Source of the DNA: a virus
Lineage: Duplodnaviria > Caudoviricetes
Length of the DNA stretch: 64,000 nt
IMG/VR virus record: IMGVR_UViG_3300033073_001074
Location: 1-64,000 of that record
Reading direction: 5' to 3' (one strand)
Part shown: positions 3,718 to 46,454 of the stretch, piece by piece
Position numbering within the stretch: position 1 is the first letter of the stretch
Layout of the letters: the number at the start of each line of letters is the position of its first letter
The notes under the pieces: generated by a model
Database searches by the model: none
What the model was told of the DNA's origin: nothing
The model's input: only the letters and a program-made list of their open reading frames with translations
Position numbers and translations under genes: made by a program

Positions 3718-3876
3718 ATGAGAAAGATTATCGATAACTCTGCAATTAATGTAAATCCGGAAGTAACTGAACCAGTAGTGGAAGCGCCAGTTAAAGAACC
3801 AGTTGCTGCTCCGCTGCCCCCAGTTGAAAAAGTTAAACCATCCAAGAAAGAAGAAAACAAAGATGCCACTTCCTAA
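3718..3876 (+). CDS. small P/E/V/K-rich protein (52 aa), not in the ORF track
   Basis: ATG 3718 after GAGGG; MRKIIDNSAINVNPEVTEPVVEAPVKEPVAAPLPPVEKVKPSKKEENKDATS; TAA 3876. Confidence 0.6.
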   Translation: MRKIIDNSAINVNPEVTEPVVEAPVKEPVAAPLPPVEKVKPSKKEENKDATS

Positions 3877-4435
3877 GAAAAGAAAAGATCAAGATCCTAA
3901 AGCATTCATTTCTAATTGTATGGGTAATCCTACAATGAAGAAAGAATATCCAGATCAAAAGCAGCGAGTTGCAATTTGCATCCATCAAAGTAAAGCTGAA
4001 CACGATGTATTGTCTAAAGTAGATATGCATATGCAGTATGCTAATGCTGAATGGGATGATACTTGGAATGAATTTACATATGAGATCACTATTGCTGGTG
4101 GAGTTTTTTATGAAGACACAAGAGATAAAACTCTTGATGGAGAAACACCGCATGAAGGTCTTGGTAAAGACGAGAAGAGCAAAAAGGTAAAACTTAATAA
4201 ACCGTTCAGAACTCCGGGCGGACCAAAGAAGTTTTCTGTATATGTTAAGAATGAAAAGGGCAATGTTGTAAAAGTTAATTTTGGTGATCCAGATATGGAA
4301 ATCAAACGTGACGATCCTGAAAGAAGAAAGTCATATAGAGCCAGACATAATTGCGACAATCCCGGACCAAAATGGAAAGCTAACTATTGGTCATGTAAAA
4401 TGTGGAGTGGACAACCAGTAAGCAAACTAACATGA
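3863..4435 (+). CDS. hypothetical protein with two conserved phage micro-modules
   Basis: Start moved to ATG 3863; N-terminal MPLP...FISNCMGNPTMKKEYPDQKQRVAIC and C-terminal KLNKPFRT...KKFSVYVK...VNFGDP.M.I....RR.SYRARHNC...YWSC.MW. Confidence 0.7.
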   Translation: MPLPKKRKDQDPKAFISNCMGNPTMKKEYPDQKQRVAICIHQSKAEHDVLSKVDMHMQYANAEWDDTWNEFTYEITIAGGVFYEDTRDKTLDGETPHEGLGKDEKSKKVKLNKPFRTPGGPKKFSVYVKNEKGNVVKVNFGDPDMEIKRDDPERRKSYRARHNCDNPGPKWKANYWSCKMWSGQPVSKLT

Positions 4436-5031
4436 TTTCTATTATACTACCATATTTGACGGCAAATAAATGTATTGATCTATTTAGAAAAATTATTGCC
4501 GAAAATACGACCAATGAATATGAGATTATAGAGATAGCAGATCAAAAAGATGTATACGGTTCTTTTAACGAAGGAGCCAAATTAGCTAATGGAGATCTGC
4601 TTATCTTTATGAATGACGACATCTTTGTATCCAAAGGTTGGGATGAACTATATGTAAAATACGTAACAGGAAAAACAGTGGGAACTGGATATCTTGTCGA
4701 GCCGGGAGTAGCACCTGTTTCATATAAAAATGTAGAAAAGGATTTTGGAAGAACTCCAACGTCTTATAGGCATGAAGACTTTATGAATTGGTGTGACAAA
4801 GAAAAATGTAATGCTCCTGAAATATTGCAAGACACTAAAGGTTGGTATTTACCTATGGCTATTAAAAAAGAATTTTTTGTTGATTTTCCAAATGAGCAAA
4901 AATTTCCTCATCCAAACGATATTCTACTTGTTGATGACTTGCTTCCTAGCTTGGGTTATACCTTTATAAAGGTTGCATCTTTTGCTTATCATTTACAAGG
5001 ATACTCTCATATAAAAGATAATAGATCATGA
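4432..5031 (+). CDS. glycosyltransferase family 2
   Basis: Start ATG 4432 (ATGA overlap); ISIILP...YEII...SFNEGAKLANGDLLIFMNDDIFV GT-A fold with DxD-type motif. Confidence 0.8.
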   Translation: MISIILPYLTANKCIDLFRKIIAENTTNEYEIIEIADQKDVYGSFNEGAKLANGDLLIFMNDDIFVSKGWDELYVKYVTGKTVGTGYLVEPGVAPVSYKNVEKDFGRTPTSYRHEDFMNWCDKEKCNAPEILQDTKGWYLPMAIKKEFFVDFPNEQKFPHPNDILLVDDLLPSLGYTFIKVASFAYHLQGYSHIKDNRS

Positions 5032-6122
5032 AATACGATTTTCTTATTGTGGGATCTGGATTATTTGGGTCTGTATTTGCTAGACAAATGACCGATAAAG
5101 GCAAAAAATGTCTAGTGATAGACAAAAGATCTCACATTGGAGGAAATTGTTATACGGAAAACATTCACAATATAGAGGTCCATAAATATGGGCCTCATAT
5201 TTTTCATACTAACTCTAGAGAAATCTGGGATTATATAAATCAGTTTAGCGATTTCAGACAATTTATTTATAGGCCAAAAGTAAATTTTAAAGGACAGATA
5301 TACTCTTTTCCTATAAATTTATTTACTTTATATCAAGTCTATGGAGTAACTACTCCCGAAGATGCAAAAAACATTTTGGAAACAATATATAAAGAAAAAA
5401 TAGATAATCCTCAAAATTTAGAAGAGTATGCCATTAATGAAGTAGGTTTAGAACTTTATCATAAATTCATCTATGGTTATACAAAAAAACAATGGAATAG
5501 AGAACCAAGAGATTTGCCTAAATCAATAATTGCAAGATTGCCTGTTAGATTAAACTATGATGACAATTATTTTAATGATGAATATCAAGGCATTCCAAAA
5601 AACGGATATACTGAAATATTTAATAACTTATTAACATCAGTTGATACAGAAATAGGAGTTGATTATCTTAAAGATAGAGATAAGTTAGATAGCATGGCTA
5701 AGCGAATTGTATACACAGGACCAATCGATGAGTTTTTTAATTATCAATACGATGCTCTTGAATGGAGAAGTCTAAGATTTGAAGAAGAAATATTAGACAT
5801 TGAAGATTATCAAGGAACATATGTTATAAACTATACTGATTACAATATTCCATATACAAGAATATGTGAGCATAAACACTTCTTAAACAATAAATCAAAT
5901 AAAACAATTATAACAAAAGAATATCCTCAGAATTGGACAAAAGATAACGATAGATATTATCCAGTAAATGATAAAGAAAATATATATAGATATCTAAAAT
6001 ATAGAAACTTGATAGATGAAAATAAATATATTTTTGGCGGAAGATTAGCAGAATATAAATATTATGACATGCATCAAGTTATAGCTAGAGCTTTAAAAAT
6101 AGCCGGAGAAATAAATGATTGA
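5028..6122 (+). CDS. glf: UDP-galactopyranose mutase
   Basis: FAD-binding YDFLIVGSGLFGSVFA; HIGGNCYT; HKYGPHIFHT; YFNDEYQGIP; YYPVN; GRLAEYKYYDMHQVI. Confidence 0.95.
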   Translation: MKYDFLIVGSGLFGSVFARQMTDKGKKCLVIDKRSHIGGNCYTENIHNIEVHKYGPHIFHTNSREIWDYINQFSDFRQFIYRPKVNFKGQIYSFPINLFTLYQVYGVTTPEDAKNILETIYKEKIDNPQNLEEYAINEVGLELYHKFIYGYTKKQWNREPRDLPKSIIARLPVRLNYDDNYFNDEYQGIPKNGYTEIFNNLLTSVDTEIGVDYLKDRDKLDSMAKRIVYTGPIDEFFNYQYDALEWRSLRFEEEILDIEDYQGTYVINYTDYNIPYTRICEHKHFLNNKSNKTIITKEYPQNWTKDNDRYYPVNDKENIYRYLKYRNLIDENKYIFGGRLAEYKYYDMHQVIARALKIAGEIND

Positions 6123-6849
6123 TACAATTATACCCTTTTGTAGTTATGATTATAAATTTATTGATGCCACTATAGATGGTATTCGAGATGTAAGCAAAAA
6201 CATCATAGTAACATACTTTGACTATACTTTTGACGGTAAGCCGGAGAATTTAGAATTAATAAATCAAGTAAAGAATAGAAACACAGATTGTAAATTTATC
6301 CCCCTAGATTATGACTTTTCAGCTAATGCTAGATGGCATCATAATCAAACTCGATGGGTAGGACTTCAATTTTGTAAATCTGATTATGTACTATTTTTAG
6401 ATTCGGATGAAGTTTTTGAAAAGCAAAAAATAAAGCAGTGGTTAGATAGTAATATCGATACTTTAAAAGATGTAACAACATTTGCGAATTACTGGTATTT
6501 TAGATCACCCAAGTATAGAGCAAAAGTTATTGAAGATAGTCCTGTAATGATTAAAAAGGATATCGCTTCTTATGATTATATTTTTGATGATCTAGAACGT
6601 GCATCATTTAAGTACGCCGGAGATTTTTCAAAAAGTTTACAGGTTATGGGATTAGACGGGTTGCCAATGTGCCACCACTATAGCTGGGCCTTATCAAAAG
6701 AAGAAATGCTTAGAAAAGTAAGTTCATGGGGTCATAAGGGTGAAAAGAACTGGGAGCAGCTCATCAACGAAGAATTTTCAAGAGAATTTAATGGCAAAGA
6801 TTTTATTCATGAATACGAGTATGAAATATGCGAACCTTTGATCAAGTAA
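6115..6849 (+). CDS. glycosyltransferase family 2-like protein
   Basis: DYVLFLDSDEVF DxD motif; HHYSW...MLRKVSSWGH C-terminal motif. Confidence 0.7.
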   Translation: MIDTIIPFCSYDYKFIDATIDGIRDVSKNIIVTYFDYTFDGKPENLELINQVKNRNTDCKFIPLDYDFSANARWHHNQTRWVGLQFCKSDYVLFLDSDEVFEKQKIKQWLDSNIDTLKDVTTFANYWYFRSPKYRAKVIEDSPVMIKKDIASYDYIFDDLERASFKYAGDFSKSLQVMGLDGLPMCHHYSWALSKEEMLRKVSSWGHKGEKNWEQLINEEFSREFNGKDFIHEYEYEICEPLIK

Positions 6850-7520
6850 CCCTATTATGTATTGATACAAAGCAACCAATAGAAGCGTTGCTTGCCATGA
6901 TGCAATCTAAAAAGTCAATTGGTTTTGCAGCTTGCAAATTTTTAACAGATAAAGAAAAGCTAGAGCAAGTTCCAAACTTTGTATCAGGAATTGATATTAT
7001 CGACATTGGCAAGATTAATAATTTAGCAAGATATAATGAATTCTGTCTAAAAGAATTTGTAGAATATTTTGATACTGAATTTTGTCTAATGGTTCAACAC
7101 GATGGTTTTGTAGTTAGACCTCATCTTTGGTCTAATAAATTTTTTGAATATGACTATATTGGAGCGCCTTGGCCCGAAGAATGGGGATATTGTAATAGAG
7201 TGGGAAATGGTGGATTTAGTTTAAGATCTAAAAAGTTTGCCCAAAAGTGCAAAGATATATTTAATCATATTGATTTTCATTCTGAAGTTACAAGGGATAG
7301 GAATGATATCTCGATAAATGAAGATTTCTTATCTTGTGTTATTCATTTTGAAGAAATGAAATCTAATGGTATTAAGTTTGCTCCACCTGAATTAGCTGCA
7401 CTTTTTTCAACAGAACACTATGTAAAAGAAATGTTGCCAGAATCATTCGGATTTCACGATAAATTTACAGACTTTACAAAAGAGGCTATTCTTGAAAAGT
7501 ATATCAATCTCACTTTATAA
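6828..7520 (+). CDS. DUF5672-like putative glycosyltransferase
   Basis: CLMVQHDGFVV...FFEYDYIGAPW...VGNGGFSLRSKK...NEDFL...FAPPELAALFSTE...FGFH. Confidence 0.8.
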   Translation: MRTFDQVTLLCIDTKQPIEALLAMMQSKKSIGFAACKFLTDKEKLEQVPNFVSGIDIIDIGKINNLARYNEFCLKEFVEYFDTEFCLMVQHDGFVVRPHLWSNKFFEYDYIGAPWPEEWGYCNRVGNGGFSLRSKKFAQKCKDIFNHIDFHSEVTRDRNDISINEDFLSCVIHFEEMKSNGIKFAPPELAALFSTEHYVKEMLPESFGFHDKFTDFTKEAILEKYINLTL

Positions 7521-8211
7521 TCGACCAGAATATACAGCTAGACTATTTGATCATCTAAACAACTGTATTGGAGTTGATGAGTATAATTTTATTATTTGTG
7601 TGGAACCAGTAAACTCAGATGTAATCAATCTAGCAAAAAGTTTTCGACCCGCGCAATCCTCTCTAACAATTAATGAGGACAAACTGGGATGTCAAACCAA
7701 TATTTTTCAATCAGTCGCAAAAGGTTTTGAAATTAATAATGGATTCCATATTCATCTTGAAGATGATACGATTCCCGGAAAAGATTGTTTAAAATATTTT
7801 GAGTGGGCTGCTGAAAAATATAAAGATGACGAATCAGTATTCTCTATATCCGGGTATGTAAATTCAAATAATTTAATGGAAAATTGTTGCAATTCCAAAA
7901 CGGATGATATAATGCTAGTAGACAGACGTAAACATTTTACACCGTGGGGATGGGGAACATGGCTAAGCAGATGGAAAGAGATTAGAAAAGATTGGGACTT
8001 TGGATATAATAATGGTGGTTGGGATGTCAATATGGCAAAACGACTAAGGCAAGATAGATATGAAATTTATCCAATGGTTTCAAGAATTCAAAATATAGGT
8101 GCAAAAGATGGTATTCATGTAGAGTCAGAAGAGTGGCATAAGAAAAATCACTTCAATGAATACTGGATTGAATCTATCAATAAATATACTGAGGATTTCT
8201 ATGAGAGATAA
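7492..8211 (+). CDS. GT-A fold glycosyltransferase
   Basis: YNRPEYT; IHLEDDTIP; VFSISGY; FTPWGWGTWLSRW; SRIQNIG. Confidence 0.75.
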   Translation: MKSISISLYNRPEYTARLFDHLNNCIGVDEYNFIICVEPVNSDVINLAKSFRPAQSSLTINEDKLGCQTNIFQSVAKGFEINNGFHIHLEDDTIPGKDCLKYFEWAAEKYKDDESVFSISGYVNSNNLMENCCNSKTDDIMLVDRRKHFTPWGWGTWLSRWKEIRKDWDFGYNNGGWDVNMAKRLRQDRYEIYPMVSRIQNIGAKDGIHVESEEWHKKNHFNEYWIESINKYTEDFYER

Positions 8212-8782
8212 ATTAAATAAAATATTAGCAGTAACAAATAATGAATTAAATAATATAGACTATGGAAAATACACTTTAGTTACAGATAGGATATCTGGAT
8301 ATCAGGGGTATTTTTTCTTAGAGTCGGGCAAAGAGCATTATAGATTATTATCATATATATCAACACTGTATAACAATGAGGATATATTTGATATAGGAAC
8401 ATATAAAGGATTCTCAGCTCTTGCTTTAAGTCATAATCCAACAAATAAAGTTATATCATATGATATCTTAGAAGATAGTGATTTGTGGTATATTAAATAC
8501 TCACCCTTCTCTAGCAGCATAGAATATATGGTGGGCGACTGCACACTAGACGAACGACTACTGCAATCAAATTTTATTTCACTAGACACTGCTCATGATG
8601 GAGTATACGAAGAATATTTCTTGGGCTATCTTGCAAAAAATAATTGGCAAGGACTATTACTTATGGATGATATTCATGAATACCCCGCTTTGAAGAATAT
8701 ATGGCACTCAATAACCAAGGAAAAATATGATTTGACAAATAAGGGTCATTGGTCAGGAACTGGATTGGTGGTGTTTGAATGA
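8201..8782 (+). CDS. class I SAM-dependent methyltransferase
   Basis: Start moved to ATG 8201; IFDIGTYKGFSALAL...VISYDI...ISLDTAHDG...LLLMDDI. Confidence 0.75.
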   Translation: MRDKLNKILAVTNNELNNIDYGKYTLVTDRISGYQGYFFLESGKEHYRLLSYISTLYNNEDIFDIGTYKGFSALALSHNPTNKVISYDILEDSDLWYIKYSPFSSSIEYMVGDCTLDERLLQSNFISLDTAHDGVYEEYFLGYLAKNNWQGLLLMDDIHEYPALKNIWHSITKEKYDLTNKGHWSGTGLVVFE

Positions 8783-9417
8783 GATATTGGAAACCTTTAA
8801 AAATTGATAAGCCTGAAAAAATAAGAATTGTTGCCGCGTCATATTTTAATAATGATAAAAAAAGATTTTATGCTTCTAAATGTTTTATTAATTCAATATT
8901 AAATCAGACATATGATAATTTTGAACTTTTTATAGTTCATGATGGGCCAATTGATAAAACCGAAGAAGCCAAAGATTTTATTGCATCTATTAAAGATCCC
9001 AGAATTAAACTATTTGAAACTGAAAAAAGAGAAGGTAAATATGGATATCCCCACAGAAAAAAATACGCCTTTCTAAATGAAGATTTTGATTGGCTCATAT
9101 TTACAAATGATGACAATTATTATGTACCTGTTGCATTAGAAACTTTTTTGCATGGATGTCAAAAATTAGATAAAAAAATTATCTATTCTAATATGTTATC
9201 AAGTCATAAATTCTGGTTTCCTTTGATTACAGATTTTCAAAAAGAAAAACTAGACTTAGGTGGCTTTATGATTCATAAAGATATCATGAGAGACTATGGC
9301 TTTGTTTTATCAGAAAATAATTGTTTTGTAGCTGATGGTCTATTGATTAATCAGCTAAGATTAGATCATTCAGATAAGATAGTTAAACTAGATAATTTTC
9401 TTTATATACACAATTGA
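8779..9417 (+). CDS. glycosyltransferase family 2
   Basis: SILNQTYDNFELFIVHDGP...GKYGYPHR...WLIFTNDDNYYVP. Confidence 0.8.
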   Translation: MRYWKPLKIDKPEKIRIVAASYFNNDKKRFYASKCFINSILNQTYDNFELFIVHDGPIDKTEEAKDFIASIKDPRIKLFETEKREGKYGYPHRKKYAFLNEDFDWLIFTNDDNYYVPVALETFLHGCQKLDKKIIYSNMLSSHKFWFPLITDFQKEKLDLGGFMIHKDIMRDYGFVLSENNCFVADGLLINQLRLDHSDKIVKLDNFLYIHN

Positions 9418-9421
9418 GGTA

Positions 9422-9982
9422 ATGATGAATATAGTACAAGTTGGTGCAAATGCCGGTAATGACGATGCTTATAACTATATTATTAATAATATTCATAATA
9501 TAAATACAGTAGTATTGATAGAACCACTAGAAAAACATAATGAAATTTTAAAAGATCAGTATAGTTCTGTAGCTAATTTATATATAGAAAATATAGCAAT
9601 AGTAGATAATCCAGAATTATCCACAATTAGATTTTTTATAGCTCCAGAAGAAGGTCAGGTATCTGCTCTTGGATTGGATCATTTAGTTAAACACAACGTG
9701 CATTACACTCAGATTCAATCAGTAGAAATACCATGCTCCACTCTTAATAAAATATTTGACAAATACAATTTAATTGATATTGATTATCTTTTTATTGATG
9801 CAGAAGGATTTGATGATAAGATTATCACATCTATAGATTTTAATAAATACAATATATCAAAAATAGAATATGAAAACCTACATATTGATAATTCGAAATT
9901 AGAAATGTTTCTATCTAATTTAGGATATAAAATTACTCATGGAACCGGATATAATGGATGGTCTAACAGGGCAAGCAAATGA
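9422..9982 (+). CDS. FkbM family methyltransferase
   Basis: IVQVGANAG...VVLIEPL...IENIAI...STLNKIFDKYNLIDIDYLFIDAEGFD. Confidence 0.85.
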   Translation: MMNIVQVGANAGNDDAYNYIINNIHNINTVVLIEPLEKHNEILKDQYSSVANLYIENIAIVDNPELSTIRFFIAPEEGQVSALGLDHLVKHNVHYTQIQSVEIPCSTLNKIFDKYNLIDIDYLFIDAEGFDDKIITSIDFNKYNISKIEYENLHIDNSKLEMFLSNLGYKITHGTGYNGWSNRASK

Positions 9983-10695
9983 AAGTTGCATTAATCTGTA
10001 TAGCAAAAAATGAAGATAATTATATAGACGAATGGTTAAAATATCATAAAAAAATAGGTTTTGATAAAATATTCATATACGAGAATAATTGGAGATGCCC
10101 TCCAAATATAAATTATGATTTTGTGGAAAAAACAGAGTTTGACGGTGAAATCCAACAGATTCCGGCATATAATCATTTCATTTATTATAAATCTCATGAT
10201 TTTGATTGGGTGTGCTTTTTAGATGTGGATGAGTTCATAGTATTGAAACAACACTCAAACATCAAAGATTTCCTAAATAATTATAATCACTTAAAATGCA
10301 TAGCTCTAAATTGGTTATTTTTTGGAAATGATGATCTTAAATTTAACGGGGAATACTCATTAATAAAAAGATTTACCAAAAGACAAGCGGAACTCAATAA
10401 GCATATTAAATGTATATTTAAACCAAGTAAAAAAATAGGAATGAATATACATCAACCAAATATGTCATGGGTTGATATGGAAAACAATGAAGGCAATGGG
10501 CCGTTTTCAAATTGTAAAAATGATTCGGTGGCTTTTGTTGCGCATTTCTTTTGTAAAACGCCAGAAGAATTTAACGAAAAGATTAATAGAGGAAGAGCAG
10601 ATATGAATCGACCAAGATCACTAGAAGACTATACAGAAGGAAATAATAATATAGTCGAAGATTTATCAGTATATAATTTTATGTATGGTAACTAA
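9979..10695 (+). CDS. glycosyltransferase (GT2/GT92-like)
   Basis: ALICIAKNEDNYIDEWLKYHKKIGFDKIFIYENN...WVCFLDVDEFI...LNWLFFG. Confidence 0.8.
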   Translation: MKVALICIAKNEDNYIDEWLKYHKKIGFDKIFIYENNWRCPPNINYDFVEKTEFDGEIQQIPAYNHFIYYKSHDFDWVCFLDVDEFIVLKQHSNIKDFLNNYNHLKCIALNWLFFGNDDLKFNGEYSLIKRFTKRQAELNKHIKCIFKPSKKIGMNIHQPNMSWVDMENNEGNGPFSNCKNDSVAFVAHFFCKTPEEFNEKINRGRADMNRPRSLEDYTEGNNNIVEDLSVYNFMYGN

Positions 10696-10699
10696 ATTA

Positions 10700-10710
10700 G
10701 TGTATATAAT
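10700..10710 (+). promoter_or_regulatory. candidate phage-specific promoter motif GTGTATATAAT
   Basis: Intergenic, about 45 nt upstream of the next start; same core as 1533, 18220, 49462. Confidence 0.45.
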
Positions 10711-10752
10711 AATAGTTAAGCCACCCTTACCCTTAATCTAGGAGACTTGATA

Positions 10753-11187
10753 GTGAAAAAAGATTATTTCAAAGCAATGACAGAATATACAGAAGCAGAA
10801 AAGAAACCAGTAACAGATTTTGAAAAATATGTCCCAACTAAACCGGGACGCAAGCAAAATCTACACGAACACTATTTTACTGGTGATAAATCAGACGAAG
10901 ATCCAAATGAAAAAAATTCAATTCTTCCGGGTAAAGCCGAAGAAGATAAGGATAAGTGGAACGATATTCAAAAAAAAAAGGACAGTAATAAAATGAACGT
11001 GGTAGGCCCGCCTCCATTTTCTGATATTCCCGATGCGAGAATGACAACCATGTCTGGTGATAAACCGGGACTTTGGGAGAATATTCGTAAAAAGAAAGAA
11101 CGTGAAGGTAAAAATTACAAGCCTGCCAAGCCGGGCGATCCAGATCGTCCAGATCCTGAAGCATTGAAAAAAGCACAATCTTCATAA
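10753..11187 (+). CDS. charged hypothetical protein with a GLW.NIR.K phage module
   Basis: GGAG at 10741-10744 favours GTG 10753; K/D/P-rich; KPGLWENIRKKKEREGKNYKPAKPGDPDRP; contains an A10 run at 10970-10979. Confidence 0.65.
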   Translation: MKKDYFKAMTEYTEAEKKPVTDFEKYVPTKPGRKQNLHEHYFTGDKSDEDPNEKNSILPGKAEEDKDKWNDIQKKKDSNKMNVVGPPPFSDIPDARMTTMSGDKPGLWENIRKKKEREGKNYKPAKPGDPDRPDPEALKKAQSS

Positions 11188-11196
11188 AATCTTCAC

Positions 11197-11224
11197 TTGA
11201 CATCTGGGTGTCCGAAGGTATAAT
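11197..11224 (+). promoter_or_regulatory. sigma70 consensus promoter for the DUF1559 gene
   Basis: TTGACA(11197-11202), 16 nt, TATAAT(11219-11224), intergenic. Confidence 0.8.
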
Positions 11225-11233
11225 AATATTGTC

Positions 11234-11266
11234 GAGGGGCGGCGAATGGAGTCGCCCTTCTTATTT
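11234..11266 (+). other. GC-rich stem-loop at the predicted 5' end of the DUF1559 mRNA
   Basis: GAGGGGCGGC / GTCGCCCTTC 10-bp stem (2 G-U pairs), loop GAATGGA, followed by TTATTT. Confidence 0.55.
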
Positions 11267-11289: not shown

Positions 11290-12387
11290 ATGAAGAATCA
11301 AAAGAAAGCCTTTACCCTGATCGAACTGTTGGTTGTCATCGCAATTATTGCGGTGCTAATTTCCCTTCTGCTCCCTGCCGTACAATCTGCCCGTGAAGCC
11401 GCTCGTCGCTCACAATGTACAAATAACCTGAAGCAAGTTGGATTAGCTGCACACAATTTTGAAAGCATTAGAGGTACTTTTCCAAGATCGGGCGAACATA
11501 ATTTGCCAGTAAATTCGCAAATGTATAAAACGCAAGATTTTCATAGTGCATTTACTATGATCCTAGCGACTATTGAACAAGGCAATGCCTACAATCAGTT
11601 TAACCTACAAATTCCATATAATTTTGCAGGTAATGCAACTGTAAGTTCAACGGTAATTAGCACATTTCTTTGTCCAACAAATGCCCTTGAGTCAGACAGA
11701 AACAGTGGCAAAGATAGCATTGGCTTTGGATGTATTGACTATGCAACAGCGCCTTACACCGAAATCATGCCTAATGGCACAACTAAGTGGCAAGCTGGTT
11801 ATGTCGCTCCAGTTCCAGAACCCGGAGCTTTAACAGGAACATCATATGCGGTTTCAGCTTACGCTCAATATAATTGTAATGGATGCTCGTCATCTAAGAC
11901 ATATCAAATTGACCCAGCAAAAGTTCTATCTGGAGCAGTTGATGTTTTCCAAGGGGTTCCCATTTCTGCAATCACAGACGGCACTTCGAATACTGCAATG
12001 TTTTATGAGGATACTGGTCGATCTTCAAGAATGCAAGGTAATGGTAATTACGCAGCCCCACCAACCGATTATTTGCCCGACTTGAATGCTCCAGCACCTT
12101 ATGTTCAAGGCGCTCGTCGCTCATGGAGATGGGGCGATCCTGACAATGCCGCTGGTGTTTCAAGTGGAGTTAACAATAATAAGACCGCTGGATTTGGAGC
12201 TGGTTGTGATTGGGGTGTTCATGATTGCGGCCCAAATAATGAGATTTTCTCATGGCATCCGGGTGGAGCTAATGTTTGTATGAGTGATGGATCTGTACGA
12301 TTTATTAAAGAAAGTACTGCAACGTCAGTTATTCGATCTTTAATTACTCGTGCTGGCGGCGAAGTGATTTCCGCAGATTCCTATTGA
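11290..12387 (+). CDS. DUF1559 domain protein with prepilin-type N-terminal cleavage/methylation site and H-X9-DG motif
   Basis: [53 protein letters not shown] at the N-terminus; [20 protein letters not shown] at the C-terminus. Confidence 0.93.
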
Positions 12388-12412: not shown

Positions 12413-12417
12413 AAAAG

Positions 12418-12837: not shown

Positions 12838-13027
12838 ATATGTACCAATCAGAATAGCAAAAACAACTCAGCAAATCCTAAGAGAAGTTTATAAAGATAT
12901 AGATATAAATGAATCTCGATTATCTTTAATTGAAAGAAGTTTACTTGGATTGCCACCAGAAAATCACAAAGATATACTAGATCAAATTTTTGAGGAATAT
13001 AATAATGCTACTACAAGCTCCAATTAA
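12824..13027 (+). CDS. hypothetical protein
   Basis: 67 aa ORF overlapping both neighbours in operon style. Confidence 0.55.
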   Translation: MIMIEYVPIRIAKTTQQILREVYKDIDINESRLSLIERSLLGLPPENHKDILDQIFEEYNNATTSSN

Positions 13028-14069
13028 CAGCTTAGGATATGGTGTTGCGGGATATAATATTGCAAAACAATTAGGAAAGAAGAAGGGTGTTGAAGACTTT
13101 ACTCTTTTTCCCATTGGTCAACCTGAACCAGAACTGTATGAAGAACTATTAAAATATGACTGGCGAAATAAAGAAGAAGAATTAAGTTTATCTGATATAT
13201 GCTTGAAAATTTGGCATCAAAATGGATTACATGAGATGGCTGGAAGAGGAGTTCGAATCGGTTTTCCTATTTTTGAACTCAACAGTTTTACAAATGAAGA
13301 AGAGTTAAGTATTAGTAGTTGTGATGGAATATTTGTTTGCTCAGAGTGGGCTAAGGCAGTTATTGCACATGAAACAAGAATAAATTATCATTGTATTAAA
13401 GTTGTTCCACTTGGAGTTGACCGTTCTATCTTCAACGAGAATAACAATGTAAAACGCCCAGCTACAATCTTCTTTAATTGTGGTAAATGGGAAGTTCGCA
13501 AAGGTCACGATATCATCAAAGAATGTTTTGAAAAGGCGTTTAGCCAAAATGATAATGTTGAACTTTGGATGATGTGCGAAAATCCATTCCTAGGTGAAAA
13601 AAATAACGATTGGATTAATTATTACAGGTCTTCCAGTCTTGCAAATAAAATCCGTTTCATCCCAAGACAAAAAAGTCAGCGGGATGTGTATAATATTATG
13701 AGACAAGTTGATGTTGGAGTTTTTCCAGTTAGAGCAGAAGGTTGGAATTTAGAGCTTCTTGAACTGCTATCGTGTGGTAAACATGTAATTACTACAGATT
13801 ATTCTGGTCACACAGAATTTACAAATAGAAAAAATGCAAGAATCATTAATACTGGTAAGTTAGAACCTGCTCATGATGGCATATGGTTTCATGGTCAAGG
13901 CAATTGGGCTAAACTTGGCGACCCACAAAAGGATCAACTTATTACTCATATGAGAGAACTTCATCAACAAAAGAAAGATAGTGAATTGGATATTAATTTA
14001 GCAGGAATTGAAACTGGTATTAAATTTTCTTGGGAAAATACGGCAGAGGAGATATTAAATGGGCTTTGA
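13005..14069 (+). CDS. glycosyltransferase family 4 (GT-B)
   Basis: Start moved to ATG 13005; GKWEVRKGHDII; EGWNLELLE EX7E signature; ITTDYSGHTEF. Confidence 0.85.
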   Translation: MLLQAPINSLGYGVAGYNIAKQLGKKKGVEDFTLFPIGQPEPELYEELLKYDWRNKEEELSLSDICLKIWHQNGLHEMAGRGVRIGFPIFELNSFTNEEELSISSCDGIFVCSEWAKAVIAHETRINYHCIKVVPLGVDRSIFNENNNVKRPATIFFNCGKWEVRKGHDIIKECFEKAFSQNDNVELWMMCENPFLGEKNNDWINYYRSSSLANKIRFIPRQKSQRDVYNIMRQVDVGVFPVRAEGWNLELLELLSCGKHVITTDYSGHTEFTNRKNARIINTGKLEPAHDGIWFHGQGNWAKLGDPQKDQLITHMRELHQQKKDSELDINLAGIETGIKFSWENTAEEILNGL

Positions 14070-39747: not shown

Positions 39748-40077
39748 ATGAATGTTTGTTGTTTTATTGGCAAATTGGCAAATGACCCGGAACTAAGAGA
39801 AATTAATGGGACATATGTTGTTAATTTTTCTCTTGCTGTAGAGGACTATAGAAAATCTAATGATGGTGAAAAACATCGTCGAGTAGATTTTTTTGATTTT
39901 GAAGCGTGGGATACTGGCGCAACCACAATTGCTAAATATTTCAAGAAGGGCGATATGATGGCAATTGAAGCGGAAGCTAGGCAGCATAAGTGGACATCGA
40001 ACGAACAAAAGCGTCAAAAGGTTGTTTTTCGCGTGAAGACATTTAAATCAGCAGGATGTAAAGTGGACCAAGAATAA
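39748..40077 (+). CDS. ssb: single-stranded DNA-binding protein (short, no acidic tail)
   Basis: IGKLANDPELR...VNFSLAV...FFDFEAWD..A..IAKYFKKGD...W. Confidence 0.88.
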   Translation: MNVCCFIGKLANDPELREINGTYVVNFSLAVEDYRKSNDGEKHRRVDFFDFEAWDTGATTIAKYFKKGDMMAIEAEARQHKWTSNEQKRQKVVFRVKTFKSAGCKVDQE

Positions 40078-41723
40078 TGAAGAAAAAAGTATTATTTGTA
40101 ACGGAGGCATCGCACCATCCTACGGGATATTCTGTCTATACCAAAGAAGTATTGAGCAGATTATCAAAGTCTCAAGAAATTGAAGTAGCAGAGTTGGCTT
40201 GCTATGCTTCTCCAGAAGAAATTGAATCTCAAAATAATAGTTGGAAAATATATCCAAATATTCCTAGCGCAGAGCATAAAGAAGCTATGGATATGTATAA
40301 TTCTTCTATGTCAAACAAATTTGGGGATTTTTCTTTTAATAGAGTATTGCTTGATTTTAAGCCACACTTTGTTATGGATATTAGAGATTGGTGGATGCTT
40401 GAATTCGAAGAACGGTCTCCATTCAGATCGTTTTTTAATTGGGCAATTATGCCAACAGTAGATGCAGAACCTCAACACGGTCAATGGATAGACACATACT
40501 CATCTGCCGATGGAGTGTTTGCATATTCTGAATTTGGTAGAGATACTATGAAAAAGCAGTCTTCTAAAATTAATTTTGTGGATATTCCATCGCCATGTGC
40601 GAGCGATACTTTTCACAAGATAGAAGACAAGAAAGCTCTAAGATCACAATACGGACTCCGAGACGATATTGTTGTTTTCGGAACTGTTATGAGAAATCAG
40701 AGAAGAAAGTTATATCCAGACTTGTTCAAGGCATTTAGACTATTCCTTGATCAAAATCCAGAACAGACTAATGCATATCTTTATTGCCACACTGCATATC
40801 CAGATGTTGGTTGGGATATTCCGGATTTAATCAAAGAGAATGGATTGTCTAATCGAGTTCTGTTGACATATAAGTGTCGTCAATGTGGAAAAGTTAAGCC
40901 GATGTTTTTTAATGACGCTGTGGCTTTTTGCAATGATTGTAAATCTTTTACATATACAATTGTGGGGTTAAACAATAGAATTGACGATGTAGAACTCAAC
41001 AAGATATATAACCTATTTGATGTCTATATCCAATGGGCAAATAGTGAAGGTTGGGGTATGCCACAACTAGAAGCTGCGTATGCGGGATTACCAGTTGTAT
41101 CTGTTTATTACTCCGCTATGCAATCTTTGATTGATAACATCAGAGGAATTGGTATTAAGCCAGTTGGGTTCTATAAAGAGCTAGAAACTGGATGTTTAAG
41201 AGCAGTTCCAGATAATCAACAATTAGCGAGAATCATGGCTAATCTATGCGACGATAATTATAGAAAATTGGTTGCAACCAGATGCTATCATAATGCTAGA
41301 GATATTTACAATTGGGACTATACTGCAAACAAGTGGTTAAAATATTTCTTAAATACTCCAGTTAAAAATGAGAACCAAACATGGTTATCACCTCCTAGAT
41401 TTTTTAATCCTATGAGACAATCGCCAGCAAACATTACTTCGTTGCCGGTAACAGATCAAGTCGATTGGTTATTCCATAATGTTTTGGGTATGCCAGATAT
41501 GATCAACGGTTCTACATGGAAAAAGTTAGTTAAAGACTTAACATATAGAAGCGCCATGACAGGCATGATTCCCGGATATTATTTTAATGATAATTCGCAT
41601 CCGGATTACGAAAAGAAGTTTGAAGAATTTACTTTTGAAAAAGCATTCAACTTTTGTTTACAAATGCGTGATCATTACAATCAATGGGAAAACATTAGAG
41701 TTCAAATGTTAGGTGTAAAATGA
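40077..41723 (+). CDS. glycosyltransferase family 4 with internal zinc-ribbon insert
   Basis: VMRNQRRKLYPDL; EGWGMPQLEAAYAGLPVV EX7E signature; inserted CRQC...CNDC. Confidence 0.85.
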   Translation: MKKKVLFVTEASHHPTGYSVYTKEVLSRLSKSQEIEVAELACYASPEEIESQNNSWKIYPNIPSAEHKEAMDMYNSSMSNKFGDFSFNRVLLDFKPHFVMDIRDWWMLEFEERSPFRSFFNWAIMPTVDAEPQHGQWIDTYSSADGVFAYSEFGRDTMKKQSSKINFVDIPSPCASDTFHKIEDKKALRSQYGLRDDIVVFGTVMRNQRRKLYPDLFKAFRLFLDQNPEQTNAYLYCHTAYPDVGWDIPDLIKENGLSNRVLLTYKCRQCGKVKPMFFNDAVAFCNDCKSFTYTIVGLNNRIDDVELNKIYNLFDVYIQWANSEGWGMPQLEAAYAGLPVVSVYYSAMQSLIDNIRGIGIKPVGFYKELETGCLRAVPDNQQLARIMANLCDDNYRKLVATRCYHNARDIYNWDYTANKWLKYFLNTPVKNENQTWLSPPRFFNPMRQSPANITSLPVTDQVDWLFHNVLGMPDMINGSTWKKLVKDLTYRSAMTGMIPGYYFNDNSHPDYEKKFEEFTFEKAFNFCLQMRDHYNQWENIRVQMLGVK

Positions 41724-42799
41724 AAATAAGATATATTGCTAACTTTACAGATGGAACAGAGTGGTCTAGAATAGCTACTTATAATGCGCTAAATCTTAAC
41801 GCCATAGGATATGATGTATATTGTGAAGATTTTAAATACAATCAAAACAATATATTATTAGAAGAAGAAATTGACTCACTACTATCTAAAGATAAGAATG
41901 GTGTTAAGTTTGATTATTGCTTACAGCAAGTTCTTCCTAATGACTACAAGTATTATGGTGGCGTTAAAAATGTTGGAGTAATTGGATTAGAATCAAGAAC
42001 TATATCTTTTACTCCTTGGATTAAAGCATTTAAAATGATGGACTATATGCTGGTTCCTGACCGATATACAAGCCACGCATTAGCTTCGATTGGAATTAAT
42101 TCTAGAATTTTTCATTACTCTTTTAATTATGAAGCAGCGGCCAGTTTTGAAGTTTCACCGATAAAAGAAATTGAAAAATCTTTTAACTTCTTTGTCGGTG
42201 GAAATATGGGGAGATTAAAGAATCTTGAATCGGCACTTATTGCGTTTCATTCTGAGTTTGACAAAACTGAATCAGTAAATATTATTTTATGCTTTGATAA
42301 AGAAATTCAAGCTATGTCAGAGTATCTAAATAAGTTTTCAGAGTTGACTAGACTGGGAAACAGAGTTCATAAAGAAATTATTCTGTCGTCCGCTGATGAC
42401 CGAAATAGGATTGCGAACTTCTTAGCTAATGCAAATGTGTATATAGCTCCTGATTATGGAAATAGCTGTGATTATTTTGCTATGAATGCTATGGCAAAAG
42501 GGTCTCCGGTGATCTATAATAGTAATATAGGAATAAAAGAATTTTGCCAACAAAGTGGAATAGAGGTGAGTTCAATCGACGAGCCTTGCTTTGGGGTCAC
42601 AGAAACAATTCCGTTCTTATTTTCATCTAAAGATATCTGGTCGAGAATTAATATTCTTGATTTAAGAAGTAAGATGCGTCAAATATATGAGATTTGGAAA
42701 AATAATCCAAGTTACTACAATCAAATAAGAACGAATACTGTTAATGAGATCAGAAAATTTGATTATCGTATTAATAATTTAAATGGGAGCTTTTTATGA
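41720..42799 (+). CDS. GT-B/GT4-like protein, probably degenerate
   Basis: GT4-like layout (KNLESALIAFHSEF; AMAKGSPVI) but the EX7E position reads NSCDYFAMN. Confidence 0.6.
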   Translation: MKIRYIANFTDGTEWSRIATYNALNLNAIGYDVYCEDFKYNQNNILLEEEIDSLLSKDKNGVKFDYCLQQVLPNDYKYYGGVKNVGVIGLESRTISFTPWIKAFKMMDYMLVPDRYTSHALASIGINSRIFHYSFNYEAAASFEVSPIKEIEKSFNFFVGGNMGRLKNLESALIAFHSEFDKTESVNIILCFDKEIQAMSEYLNKFSELTRLGNRVHKEIILSSADDRNRIANFLANANVYIAPDYGNSCDYFAMNAMAKGSPVIYNSNIGIKEFCQQSGIEVSSIDEPCFGVTETIPFLFSSKDIWSRINILDLRSKMRQIYEIWKNNPSYYNQIRTNTVNEIRKFDYRINNLNGSFL

Positions 42800-43227
42800 A
42801 GATATATGTTGGACATGGGAATCTTGAGTCTTCTGGATTTAAAAATATCACAGAGCCAAAGATGCTTGAATATATTGTAGATGATTCCGAAGCGACTGAA
42901 ATCGTTTTTGATAATATTTTACGAGCAAACTTTCTACAAGATGTAGATAAGATTATCGAATTAGCAGCAAAGAAATTGAGATCTAATGGGTCTATAACGA
43001 TTATAGATATTGATTTTGAACTACTGGCTTTTGCATTTTCTAAGGCTGGTGATATCGTACAACTTAATCAAGCAGTTATCAATAACAAAACACCAATCAG
43101 ATCTTTTCTCACTCATGAACTGCTTAATATGATAGCCCAATCAAAAAAGCTCACGGTAGAACTTGTTAATATGAAAAATGTTGAGTTTATGCTAACACTA
43201 AGAAGGGTTGTAAATAATGGAGTTTAA
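42796..43227 (+). CDS. degenerate class I methyltransferase-like protein
   Basis: DDSEATEIVFDNIL...KKLRSNGSITIIDID resembles the MTase core; SAM-binding motif eroded. Confidence 0.45.
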   Translation: MKIYVGHGNLESSGFKNITEPKMLEYIVDDSEATEIVFDNILRANFLQDVDKIIELAAKKLRSNGSITIIDIDFELLAFAFSKAGDIVQLNQAVINNKTPIRSFLTHELLNMIAQSKKLTVELVNMKNVEFMLTLRRVVNNGV

Positions 43228-43942
43228 TATTTTCTCTTGCTATAAATGTAAACATGCCCAGATTAAGGATAGTAAACAGGTTGGATGTGATCTGGGCCAC
43301 CTTCAGTTTTTCATGATACAGAACAAAGCTGAGATCCTGAATGATGATTATTTCTATTCACTAGGAAGAGTTTGTTTATCAAAAGATGATAATACTCCTC
43401 GCCCAGAAAAGGATGTTCGTCTTGGGTATTTATTTATTTTAGACGACGAGACAAAAATAGAGCAGCTTATCAAAAATATTGATCTTATTAAAGATAAAGA
43501 TCCTTTGTGGATTGGAGTTGTTCACAGCTTTAGTAATTCTCACAACACAATTGTAGATGCAGTCAAACCTATTGGATGCAAGTACAATATTATTCTTAAT
43601 TACGAGAGTGCCGAAAATATATATAAGCCAGACCAGTTTATGAATAATTATCTAAATGGCTGGACATTGGTAAATGTTGTTGGACAACCATTCAAATTCA
43701 ATGCCAAAGAAATACTAAGCAATTTTGTATTTGAACAGTCTGGAGTGGCCGGAGCGATTCTTGAAAATATCGAAGAAAATGTTAACAATGCTTGCTTCTT
43801 CAATATTATATATAAAACCTTAAAAGGTAGCAAGATCGACTTTGATGAGGATGGCAATCTTTTAGATTTTAGATTTATTGAGAAGATTATTAATAATAAT
43901 CCTAATATGATCAAGTATTGGAAGGATTTAGAATGTCATTAA
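43217..43942 (+). CDS. hypothetical protein
   Basis: 241 aa; N-terminal CYKC...C...C motif; overlaps neighbours. Confidence 0.6.
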   Translation: MEFNIFSCYKCKHAQIKDSKQVGCDLGHLQFFMIQNKAEILNDDYFYSLGRVCLSKDDNTPRPEKDVRLGYLFILDDETKIEQLIKNIDLIKDKDPLWIGVVHSFSNSHNTIVDAVKPIGCKYNIILNYESAENIYKPDQFMNNYLNGWTLVNVVGQPFKFNAKEILSNFVFEQSGVAGAILENIEENVNNACFFNIIYKTLKGSKIDFDEDGNLLDFRFIEKIINNNPNMIKYWKDLECH

Positions 43943-44553
43943 CGGTTATCACGGTTATAAATCAAGAAACCAATGTAGTCTCAACGCTCGCAAGTGTATT
44001 GGAGTCTACATATAAGCCACATACATATTGCGTTGTAATTGGTAAAGAATGCTCTGAAAAAACGAAAGAATCAGTTCTTGTCCTATTTAAGGGGTGTTGC
44101 GGAGCAGAAACAAAACAAACAACTGAAGATTCTGGGGTTGTCTATGAAACCAATCTGAATGGAGTCAATCTTATCTGCGTACTAAGTAATCTTGAAAACA
44201 GTAATGTTAAAGGATTGTACAGTTTAGCAATCTCAAAGACTGTTGACTTTTCAAAAAATTATGTTATACTTAATCAGGGTGTATCAATTTCTGAAAACGG
44301 TCTGAGATTATTAGATGATAAATTATCTAATCCAGTTATAGGATTTGTCTACTCTGATTATATTCAAAATAACGTTTATAGATATGTTGGCAATTTTCAC
44401 TACCTAATTAGAAACAAAGTAAACATAGTATCTTATGGCTTAAAAGCGTCATTGATTAATGAGACGTTAAAAGTAGATCCATTTGATATAGCAAGTACAG
44501 TTTACAATACAGCAATTGTTTCTAAGATACCACAACCCGTTTTTGCCTTATGA
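43933..44553 (+). CDS. GT2-like protein, probably degenerate
   Basis: Start ATG 43933; LTVITVI...TLASVLESTY...IGFVYSDY; no DxD at the expected site (YVILNQG). Confidence 0.5.
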   Translation: MSLTVITVINQETNVVSTLASVLESTYKPHTYCVVIGKECSEKTKESVLVLFKGCCGAETKQTTEDSGVVYETNLNGVNLICVLSNLENSNVKGLYSLAISKTVDFSKNYVILNQGVSISENGLRLLDDKLSNPVIGFVYSDYIQNNVYRYVGNFHYLIRNKVNIVSYGLKASLINETLKVDPFDIASTVYNTAIVSKIPQPVFAL

Positions 44554-45260
44554 GTCGATTTACAAAGAAAATTAAAGATAGGTTCTCGCATCCAATACAA
44601 GTTGCAATTCTTGCGGCTGGTATTGGGGCAAGAACAAAATCATATGAACCAAGATGTTTGTTAAAGTATAATTCTAAAATTATATTGGAAACACAACTGT
44701 CGGTGCTTTCTGAAAGATTCCCTAAAAGTGAAATTAGTATTGTTTGCGGACATGATTCTGGTAGAATAATTAAGAAGGTTGGTAAGCAACATAGAATTAT
44801 TGAAAACCAAATTTATGAAAACACTAATAGCGGAGAAAGCCTAAAATTAGCAGTAAACAATTCTCTATTAGATAACTTCATGTTTATGCATGGTGATCTA
44901 GTTATATCTTATGAAATATTCAATTCGATTAATTTAAACAGTTCATTTATCCTTGTAGATAGCATGAATAAGTTTGAAGAGAAAGAAGTTGGTGTAACCG
45001 TTGTAGATGGGAAAGTTTCTGTACTATCATATAATCTTCCAGTAAAGTGGTGTCAGATCGCTTATTTTACCGGAGAAGAAATGAACATACTTAGAAAATT
45101 ATTAATCAGACAGGATTTTAATTCAAAGTATATTCTAACATTTGAAATTATAAATAAAGTAATTGAGCTTGGTGGTAGCTTTAAAAGCTATGATATTGGA
45201 ACAAGTTTTATAAAAGAAATAGATAGCCTGAAGGATATAAATAATGAAACTACTAGTTGA
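44550..45260 (+). CDS. nucleotidyltransferase (NTP_transferase / LicC-like)
   Basis: AILAAGIGAR; PRCLL; NTNSGESL; FMHGDL; KEIDSLKDI. Confidence 0.8.
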   Translation: MSRFTKKIKDRFSHPIQVAILAAGIGARTKSYEPRCLLKYNSKIILETQLSVLSERFPKSEISIVCGHDSGRIIKKVGKQHRIIENQIYENTNSGESLKLAVNNSLLDNFMFMHGDLVISYEIFNSINLNSSFILVDSMNKFEEKEVGVTVVDGKVSVLSYNLPVKWCQIAYFTGEEMNILRKLLIRQDFNSKYILTFEIINKVIELGGSFKSYDIGTSFIKEIDSLKDINNETTS

Positions 45261-46002: not shown

Positions 46003-46454
46003 ATATTGGTTTTGTAGTAAATAATATAGCGGTATCAGAAATTAACTATGAACTTATCTCATGCGTTAATCAATTGGCAGACAAAGATACAAAGACATCT
46101 CCATATATTTTCTTTCAAAACATTTCACCAACGTTCACTGCTGTGAATTGTATGACAATGAATATCGTAGGCATCAACGGTTTTCAAGGAAAGCTGGTGG
46201 CATTTGATCTTGAATCTGCAAACATCATTAATAAGAATAATCAAAATTCAGAAAACTATTTTTACCTTACTGATCTAGAATGGCTTACAAAGGTAGTGAA
46301 TTACACAGTAGTTCTTGATATTTTGAATAGTTTTAAAATCTATGTTAGAAGTGAATATCATCGCACTATAGTTAAAAATTTTACTGGGCGAGAAGATATT
46401 GAAGTTATGGAATCAGTGGGAGATCTTGTAGAATGCTTAATATCAAACAGCTAA
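45999..46454 (+). CDS. hypothetical protein, possibly Rossmann/GT N-domain remnant
   Basis: MNIGFVV...; ATGA coupling. Confidence 0.5.
   Translation: MNIGFVVNNIAVSEINYELISCVNQLADKDTKTSPYIFFQNISPTFTAVNCMTMNIVGINGFQGKLVAFDLESANIINKNNQNSENYFYLTDLEWLTKVVNYTVVLDILNSFKIYVRSEYHRTIVKNFTGREDIEVMESVGDLVECLISNS

Follow-up and report, generated by a model that had tools for sequence, protein, structure and literature searches.

A predicted galactofuranose-glycan island occupies a hypervariable slot in a freshwater phage genome

The stretch of DNA analyzed here, called the window, is the first 64 kb (64,000 nucleotides [nt]) of a 75,574-bp IMG/VR virus contig (IMGVR_UViG_3300033073_001074; G000) that is 50% complete by CheckV. 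Near its left end lies an island of nine open reading frames (ORFs), I1 to I9, which are predicted to encode six GT-A-type glycosyltransferases, the UDP-galactopyranose mutase Glf, and two methyltransferases (Table 1). All nine lie on the + strand. A first-pass annotation had read the same nine genes, with five or six glycosyltransferases; Pfam, NCBIfam, and AlphaFold2 (AF2) models agree and put the number of transferases at six. Translation of I5 starts at TTG, and I6 may begin at 8156 instead of 8201. The genes are closely packed, with three ATGA 4-nt overlaps, four overlaps of 8 to 29 nt, and one gap of 4 nt at the eight internal junctions, and the F1/I1 junction is an ATGA overlap too. The island is also the lowest-G+C 6.3-kb stretch of the contig, with a G+C content (GC) of 0.301 versus 0.358 elsewhere. 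Per-gene GC is lower in the island (Mann-Whitney p = 7e-5), as is GC at third codon positions (GC3, p = 0.008), and GC is depressed at all three codon positions. The counts of 13/60, 12/60, and 11/60 quoted earlier for single lines of sequence were exact on recount.

Table 1. Coordinates of the island genes, the slot that holds them, and related features of the window
Feature	Coordinates	Strand	Description
F1	3863..4435	+	Left-flank gene, 190 amino acids, charged; C-terminal domain matches phrog_7595, weakly DUF5754
Variable slot	4406..11053		Content differs in every close relative, always low GC
I1	4432..5031	+	Small GT2-like GT-A, invariant NDD; Pfam GT2 23.7 bits (cut-off 23.3); module A
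I2 (Glf)	5028..6122	+	UDP-galactopyranose mutase; PF03275 E 1.7e-73, 247 bits; TIGR00031 equivalog
I3	6115..6849	+	GT2-like GT-A, DxD = DSD; Pfam GT2 24.6 bits (cut-off 23.3); first gene of module B
I4	6828..7520	+	DUF5672, PF18922 E 9e-23; GT-A fold by AF2 model
I5	7492..8211	+	GNT-I (GT13)-like GT-A, invariant EDD; 26.2 bits (cut-off 25.4)
I6	8201..8782	+	Class I S-adenosylmethionine (SAM)-dependent O-methyltransferase, family 3, CCoAOMT-like fold; last gene of module B
I7	8779..9417	+	GT2, NDD motif; PF00535 E 2.8e-10, 40.8 bits (cut-off 23.3); first gene of module C
I8	9422..9982	+	FkbM methyltransferase; PF05050 E 6.8e-12, 46.3 bits; TIGR01444 50 bits (cut-off 37.7)
I9	9979..10695	+	GT92/GT2_4-like GT-A, invariant DxD = DVD; 49.8 bits
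F2	10753..11187	+	Small charged protein; N-terminal two-thirds in slot
Terminator-like hairpin	11234..11260	+	10-bp stem, 7 GC pairs, T-rich tail, after F2; consensus scan only
DUF1559 pilin-like gene	11290..12387		Adjoins slot; prepilin-type N-terminal methylation motif
Conserved GT4 (GT-B)	12990..14069	+	PF13692/PF00534; outside slot, in all relatives
Second glyco locus	40077..46454	+	Two GT4-like genes, nucleotidyltransferase, unknowns; directly after single-stranded DNA-binding protein (SSB) and DNA polymerase genes

Family calls were made with Pfam and NCBIfam at curated cut-offs, and the glycosyltransferase classes are Pfam-level rather than dbCAN assignments. I2 scores 366.6 bits against TIGR00031 (cut-off, 303.75) over residues 2 to 360, and its residues 3 to 356 are collinear with residues 2 to 357 of the Escherichia coli Glf 1I8T (E = 2e-127), and the alignment preserves the RLPVR and GGRLAEYKYYDMHQVI blocks. 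The FAD-binding Rossmann motif GxGxxG is present as VGSGLFG at residues 8 to 14 (PF13450, E = 7e-22). By these matches, I2 appears to be a bona fide UDP-galactopyranose mutase that converts UDP-galactopyranose (UDP-Galp) to UDP-galactofuranose (UDP-Galf). Several of the other Pfam matches in the island lie only just over the cut-off; the NDD, DxD, or EDD motif of I1, I3, I5, I7, and I9 is invariant in every homolog collected. I1 comes from a family so rare that 5.8 billion proteins yielded only 4 relatives. Its co-occurrence with glf was examined as a sign that it is the Galf transferase and led to no assignment; its homologs in five other viral contigs lie in other glycan clusters, only one of them with a distant Glf-like gene nearby.

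The GT-A fold of I4 was taken from an AF2 model and Foldseek because sequence searches of the Protein Data Bank (PDB) found no relative; single-sequence searches with I4 and I5 and a 40-sequence DUF5672 profile gave no meaningful match. The model, built from a 40-sequence alignment (predicted local distance difference test [pLDDT], 93.9), matches chondroitin synthase, glycogenin, BoGT6a, UGGT, and GlyE in the PDB (E = 1e-6 to 1e-5), and the predicted fold comes closest to retaining enzymes of the GT6/GT8/GT24-like kind. Its motif is atypical, an invariant D92-G93 standing in place of DxD. I6 as a single sequence falls under the Pfam cut-off; a 45-sequence profile finds family-3 O-methyltransferases in the PDB (E = 1.2e-6), and the AF2 model (pLDDT, 96.3) gives Foldseek template modeling (TM) scores of 0.63 to 0.67 to O-methyltransferases. 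I6 also has the conserved DIGTxxGxSA glycine-rich motif for SAM binding. Genomic context suggests that I6 and I8 act on sugars as O-methyltransferases. For I4 to I6 compared with L006, a close relative, the ratio of nonsynonymous to synonymous substitution rates (dN/dS) is 0.12 to 0.31, rough values with dS saturated (>1). Selection on the island enzymes thus seems to be purifying, and the enzymes look active.

Several of these families are shared with other viruses. DUF5672 is common to tailed phages and giant viruses (atlas clusters 95 to 100% viral), and its domains are frequently found joined to domains of the GT2, GT4, methyltransferase, or epimerase type. The DUF5672 and I6 families are large and mostly viral or metagenomic, with 1213 relatives found for I6. 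Homologs of I9 were found in L002 and in L081 to L086, which include a giant-virus metagenome-assembled genome (MAG) contig (L086, GVMAG). The GT92-like and DUF5672 proteins also have relatives in CroV, Fadolivirus, Tetraselmis virus, and Marseillevirus MAGs. Sequence relationships of this kind suggest that tailed phages and Nucleocytoviricota share a glycosylation gene pool.

The borders of the slot were defined with relatives retrieved through the left-flank gene, six of which, among L001 to L007, are close (flanks 64 to 80% identical in amino acid sequence). The close relatives keep F1 (64 to 78% identical in L001 to L007) at the left and the pilin-like gene, g12466, the GT4 gene, and g14059 at the right, and they carry different genes between. 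Nucleotide homology with all six ends at 4405, 27 nt before the start of I1, so that the last 27 nt of F1 lie inside the slot. Homology returns at 11054 to 11059 (at 11311 in L001), and the last ~43 codons of F2 (11054 to 11187) form the conserved right border. These C-terminal residues, with a GLWENIRKKK... motif, are conserved in close relatives; in G001, a collinear relative of 155,259 bp that is 100% complete by CheckV, the remaining fragment is 95% identical over 29% of F2. Contigs of other strains in public runs diverge from the window at 4336 to 4405 and at 11113. Public-run depth derives from contigs only, and from these runs we used bridging pieces and loose ends, not a ranking of genes by depth.

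The seven related phages, the window's included, have seven different slot contents, and in every one of the relatives the slot is poorer in GC (0.28 to 0.34) than the flanks (0.355 to 0.38). The relatives' slots hold GT17-, GT2-, GT34-, and GT7-like transferases, a sugar C-methyltransferase, a nucleotidyltransferase, a phosphoribulokinase-class II aldolase fusion, two NAD epimerase/dehydratases, a Methyltransf_24 protein, and an FkbM protein. The fusion, at 6619 to 8019 of L002, joins a phosphoribulokinase/uridine-kinase domain to a class II aldolase domain and adjoins the C-methyltransferase and nucleotidyltransferase genes, an arrangement that points to a pathway for an unusual sugar nucleotide of the branched or deoxy type. 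The possibility that the slot is a trait of the wider family was rejected. In the more distant L008 to L027, the interval from F1 to g14059 is filled by about 14 conserved small genes unrelated to glycans, and the slot is therefore specific to the subclade. Small charged proteins similar to F2 make up a loose family by single linkage (10753 to 11187 and 2059 to 2835), and members recur in L008 to L027 about 1.2 kb downstream of F1. Paralogy of g2059 and F2 was rejected (BLASTP E = 3.0).

Comparison of slot contents indicates that at least three modules, each with its own history, make up a mosaic in the island, with break points that coincide with gene junctions. Module A (I1 and Glf, 4406 to 6117) is unique to the window's phage. 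Searches for family absences covered four genomes, G000 to G003, of which G000, the window's own contig, is half a genome; among them Glf occurs only in G000 and is missing even from the complete G001. Module B (I3 to I6, 6118 to 8780) is common to L006 and G001 at 70% nucleotide identity, the value seen for the backbone, and at the protein level I3 is 64% identical to its G001 counterpart. I4 and I5 are common to L007 as well, and I5 is the most widely shared slot gene, with homologs in L003, L005, L006, and L007 at 54 to 72% identity. Because their identity to G001 equals that of the backbone, I3 to I6 were apparently inherited along with it and not acquired with the rest of the island. Of module C, I7 and I9 are common to L002 (73% nucleotide identity for I7). 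I1, Glf, I7, I8, and I9 have no counterpart in G001. Whole genes or modules may be exchanged when coinfecting relatives recombine, with the conserved borders and the inner genes that they share as crossover sites.

The first-pass annotation had proposed a different history, a block insertion between two flanking genes of the same class. Such a single, recent insertion of a foreign nine-gene island between paralogous "charged micro-module" genes would agree with the low GC, the tight gene coupling, and the five genes missing from the complete relative. We nevertheless consider it very improbable. F1 and F2 show no homology (BLASTP E = 0.28), and their paralogy was rejected; the backbone-level match of I3 to I6 speaks against a common arrival; low GC is common to every slot content and to the second glyco locus; and the same borders enclose other glycan genes in six of six close relatives. 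The island is not universal in relatives with matching composition, being absent or different in each, and the locus is better described as a recombination slot with fixed borders.

The metagenomic origin of the contig and the Pfam matches barely over the cut-off also raise the thought that the island is an assembly chimera or a functionless, decaying cargo. We hardly credit this. Near-identical contigs from independent runs of other studies bridge F1-I1, Glf-I4, I4-I7, and I9-F2, with 0 to 12 mismatches in the pieces from one freshwater run. In addition, the reading frames are intact, the motifs are invariant, dN/dS stays <0.31, and the structural models are of high confidence.

The contig encodes a ribonucleotide reductase, a DnaB-type helicase, a DnaE-type polymerase split over two genes, and a very long, tape-measure-like ORF of 2,627 amino acids. 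There is no close cultured phage, identity in the DnaE part reaching 35% at most. When the island was compared by megablast with 50,697 phage records, there were zero matches. Near-identical sequence is present in public runs from many studies labeled as freshwater, estuary, and groundwater metagenomes; habitat labels were disregarded for runs with small shares. Integrase and resolvase families (PF00589 and PF00239) were not found in G000 to G003, with positive controls matched, and lysogenic seroconversion is unlikely because of their absence. We regard the lineage as a lytic freshwater phage of roughly 150 kb.

The host of the lineage is probably a Pirellulaceae-like planctomycete. A planctomycete is suggested by the DUF1559 gene next to the slot, a host-derived, envelope-directed gene of a family known for its expansion in Planctomycetota. 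The Glf tree agrees and serves as a lead only. Among 5.8 billion proteins the best match to Glf is at most 66% identical, and matches in genomes reach at most 58%. When the 80 best matches in species genomes were placed in a tree, the phage Glf was sister to the five Pirellulaceae Glf proteins on a long branch (Shimodaira-Hasegawa-like approximate likelihood ratio test [SH-aLRT], 82), and this group is nested in a 99%-supported clade of eight. A single Glf donor was sought and is not assignable with matches this remote, this support value, and this branch.

A simple Kyte-Doolittle scan for hydrophobic 19-mers found none in the nine island proteins or in about 50 slot proteins of the relatives, and the maximum per ORF in G000 and G001 was two. 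With no polytopic membrane protein, the phage must do without a flippase, polymerase, ABC exporter, phosphoglycosyl transferase, oligosaccharyltransferase, or Gtr-type protein of its own. Because it lacks a lipid carrier, flippase, polymerase, and polytopic membrane protein, the acceptor of the glycan should be soluble or supplied by the host.

On this evidence, we read the island as the set of genes that now fills a hypervariable cassette slot for glycan biosynthesis and that makes a strain-specific glycan, with a virion protein as its likeliest acceptor, and give this reading a probability of about 0.4. The genes show a capacity for the glycan, namely, a supply of UDP-Galf, six apparently active transferases, and two methyltransferases. 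It had been proposed previously that the phage builds a methylated Galf-containing glycan, and the family assignments uphold that proposal as far as genetic capacity goes. During infection, Glf would turn host UDP-Galp into UDP-Galf, and in the cytoplasm the six GT-A transferases would assemble an oligosaccharide some six residues long or longer, perhaps primed by the GT4 encoded at 12990. The two SAM-dependent methyltransferases would O-methylate the oligosaccharide, which would be passed to a soluble molecule or a host-supplied intermediate. By analogy with chloroviruses, mimiviruses, and mycobacteriophages, the acceptor could be a virion protein and the product a strain-specific sugar coat, to which we give a little less than even odds. 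More tentatively, the locus could be a phage "serotype locus," its genes shuffled one by one among cocirculating strains, with which a long-tailed, lytic planctomycete phage covers its particles in an O-methylated Galf oligosaccharide that differs from strain to strain and is built entirely in the cytoplasm with a toolkit like that of giant viruses.

A virion target is favored by a toolkit that is autonomous and soluble, by families that are typical of viruses and shared with giant viruses, by the lytic lifestyle, and by the joint high divergence of the slot, the second glyco locus, and the tail-fiber region. The types of genes associated with virion glycosylation are all present: soluble transferases, a sugar-nucleotide enzyme, and a predicted sugar methyltransferase. 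The closest parallel in gene content is the autonomous glycosylation of giant viruses, as in chlorovirus PBCV-1 (A064R, A111/114R, and A075L) and the clade-specific fibril-glycan clusters of Megavirinae (PMC7826918, PMC9614988, PMC10117803). These viruses likewise combine soluble GT-A transferases, nucleotide-sugar enzymes, and sugar methyltransferases in clade- or strain-specific sets, and DUF5672 and GT92-, GT34-, and GT2-like families are common to them and the slot phages. In giant viruses, however, decoration of capsid or fibril proteins is proven and the hosts are eukaryotic, while the tailed phage described here is known from its genes alone. Among tailed phages, virion glycosylation is described for the mycobacteriophages Che8, Corndog, and Myrna (Freeman et al. 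2023, as cited in PMC12619734). In that cited summary, phage glycosyltransferases, sometimes with methyltransferases, are believed to modify phage proteins inside the cytoplasm, as we suppose for the slot. The same summary places those genes with structural genes and the glycans on capsid and tail-tube C termini, in contrast to the remote locus of the window, for which the genes are the only record.

Several observations weigh against a virion acceptor. A search of all ORFs for an acceptor, by Ser/Thr-rich stretches and N-x-S/T density, gave no decisive candidate. The slot lies outside the virion module, about 38 kb from the tail genes and on the opposite strand, and has no fiber genes inside; it is on the strand and side that carry replication and nucleotide-metabolism genes, and it adjoins the host-derived, pilin-like envelope gene. 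The grouping of the phage Glf with that of the host phylum would fit a host-like glycan equally well. Peripheral glycosyltransferases working on undecaprenyl-linked intermediates of a host are likewise free of membrane segments, and because of this, segment-free proteins are compatible with a host-envelope target.

These points bear on a second reading, in which the enzymes remodel the host envelope during lytic infection. The soluble transferases would use lipid-linked or envelope precursors of the host, with a host flippase and ligase completing the work, and the altered receptor glycan would block superinfecting competitors or keep progeny from adsorbing to lysed cells; the hypervariability would then track host glycans. 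Zaragoza-Solas et al. (2020; PMC7029224) described hypervariable islands of glycosyltransferase and lipopolysaccharide (LPS) genes, a "host recognition cluster," in pelagimyophages and T4-like cyanomyophages, and read the pelagimyophage islands in this way, as modifying the O chain. Those islands resemble the slot in having nonsyntenic content between conserved flanks in related aquatic phages and in combining glycosyltransferases with nucleotide-sugar enzymes. They differ in that they sit in the structural region, together with tail-fiber genes, between VrlC and gp14, whereas the slot is remote from the virion module, small (6.6 kb), bounded to the nucleotide, and equipped with Glf. The phages differ too, the one described here not being T4-like, with its split DnaE, its very long tape-measure-like ORF, and a host that is probably a planctomycete. 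Hypervariable glycosyltransferase islands are thus already known in aquatic myophages, and this one is set apart by the phage type, the location outside the structural genes, the compactness, with sharp borders and a legible mosaic of three modules, and Glf.

Remodeling of the envelope would also suit the sister relation of the phage and Pirellulaceae Glf proteins, which implies that the host phylum itself makes Galf glycans, the position of the slot against a pilin-like gene with its own perfect sigma-70 promoter, and the missing membrane segments, which are compatible with peripheral O-unit transferases. Against this, a phage with no integrase would bring about no lasting seroconversion, and its genes include neither a priming phosphoglycosyl transferase nor a flippase, a polymerase, or a membrane protein of the Gtr type. 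The nearest relatives of the enzymes are overwhelmingly viral and not bacterial O-antigen enzymes, and more than six new transferases per lytic cycle seems a costly investment. Taken together, we regard host-envelope remodeling as possible, if unlikely.

The slot can also be compared with bacterial loci for surface glycans. Glf occurs in many bacterial O-antigen loci. Like O-antigen and capsule loci and the serine-rich repeat protein (SRRP) glycosylation islands (Streptococcus pneumoniae GtfA/B and GlyD/E/G), the slot is a low-GC, shuffled mosaic between conserved flanks, and the matches to the I4 fold include GlyE of the SRRP islands. It is unlike them in lacking Wzx/Wzy or ABC export, a priming transferase, and a gene for an SRRP-like acceptor, and in belonging to a lytic phage. 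It is set apart from serotype-converting phages in that no integrase was found in G000 to G003 and, by the hydropathy scan, no membrane component such as GtrA, GtrB, a polytopic type-specific Gtr, or an O-acetyltransferase.

A third reading is that the island serves hypermodification of DNA, with methylated Galf sugars placed on a hydroxylated pyrimidine to evade restriction. The first-pass annotation had held that Glf serves surface glycans rather than DNA, a statement that is outdated, as a phage Glf need not mean a surface glycan. Phage Glf has been placed in a proposed pathway that decorates 5-hydroxycytosine (5hoC) with Gal and Glc in Rhizobium phage RL38J1 (PMC13326640, 2026), and Pyle et al. 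reported many and diverse phage clusters for DNA glycans. Homologs of the window's Glf occur in Rhizobium and Agrobacterium phages, and the second glyco locus comes directly after the SSB and DNA polymerase genes. As in the clusters for arabinosyl-5hoC (RB69 and DLP3), Gal-Glc-5hoC (RL38J1; PMC13326640), and the MT/5mYOX/GT type (Pyle et al.), the glycosyltransferases vary among relatives and a phage Glf is found.

The differences from these clusters lie in the enzyme set. A step that hydroxylates the base was sought and not found, and a set of six GT-A transferases with two O-methyltransferases is much larger than known DNA glycans, with their one to three sugars, would call for. To our knowledge, the known routes to sugars on DNA all need a hydroxylated pyrimidine, made by a ThyA homolog or by a C5-methyltransferase with TET. 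ThyA (PF00303) was not found in G000 to G003, which include the complete G001, where ThyX is present; nor was the C5 cytosine methyltransferase PF00145 found in this set, of which the window's own genome is 50% complete. Tet_JBP (PF12851) and the T4 beta-glucosyltransferase (PF09198) gave no matches, with controls equally silent. Glf, moreover, is missing from the complete relative. We therefore consider decoration of DNA improbable for this island and retain a strain-specific glycan on a virion protein as the preferred reading.

If the phage does coat its virion, glycosylation known from mycobacteriophages and giant viruses would extend to environmental phages, and hypervariable islands would gain a function. 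The slot is a compact test case, with nine genes in 6.6 kb, borders defined to the nucleotide, a modular history that can be read, and occurrence in several public freshwater samples, and galactofuranose is a diagnostic sugar that is chemically easy to detect. The questions that it addresses are whether virion, envelope, or DNA is decorated, how phage "serotype-like" loci are shuffled, and how phages of Planctomycetota deal with surface glycans.

Two further sets of glyco genes lie elsewhere in the window. The GT4 at 12990 is 66 to 73% identical in close relatives and 36 to 44% identical in distant ones and is a candidate for a conserved or priming step of the same glycan. The second glyco locus is the second-lowest-GC stretch of the contig (0.328), and its genes at 41720 to 44553 and 45244 to 46454 are 29 to 45% identical to those of G001, against ~70% in their neighbors; its position is fixed. 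It thus appears to diverge by sequence change and the slot by gene swapping, and it is possibly part of the same pathway as the island. Between G000 and G001, divergence is greatest in the slot, the second glyco locus, and the tail-fiber region. Elsewhere, the ORF at 22737 to 23741 is 25% identical to its positional counterpart in G001, with neighboring nrdJ at 86% and phoH at 72%, and its product may be another fast-evolving, possibly surface-exposed protein. Beyond the window, positions 73698 to 75053 of G000 encode a minus-strand protein of 451 amino acids that is 36% identical to its G001 counterpart and has 16 N-x-S/T sequons (35 per 1,000 residues) and 23% Ser plus Thr, a candidate surface protein.

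The transcription unit that holds the island likely ends at the hairpin at 11234. A perfect TTGACA-17-TATAAT promoter at 942 to 970, inside the 3' part of the gene at 227 to 1228 and 276 nt upstream of the ORF at 1246, could drive a unit from that ORF through F1, the island, and F2 up to the hairpin. Sigma-70-like sites with at least 11 of 12 matches number 12 on the + strand versus about 3 expected, all as consensus matches only. Perfect 12/12 consensus promoters precede the pilin-like gene (in the region 11197 to 11260, which also holds the hairpin) and g12466 (12384 to 12412), and the hairpin, a strong one lying between the pilin promoter and start codon, would sit in the 5' untranslated region of the pilin-like gene. 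Public runs show 1-nt indels at 11201 to 11215 and 12416 to 12425, inside promoter spacers. The use of these promoters to assign expression timing was rejected, since perfect sites precede accessory genes and a tail-side gene alike.

Downstream of the conserved GT4, the region from 14059 to 16605 begins with a protein of 309 amino acids that carries a weak papain-like peptidase C1 label from language-model look-alikes. Next come five small ORFs (14985, 15290, 15657, 15848, and 16135) with one hydrophobic segment each, and the region may be a lysis cassette of an endolysin-like peptidase with holin- or spanin-like proteins.

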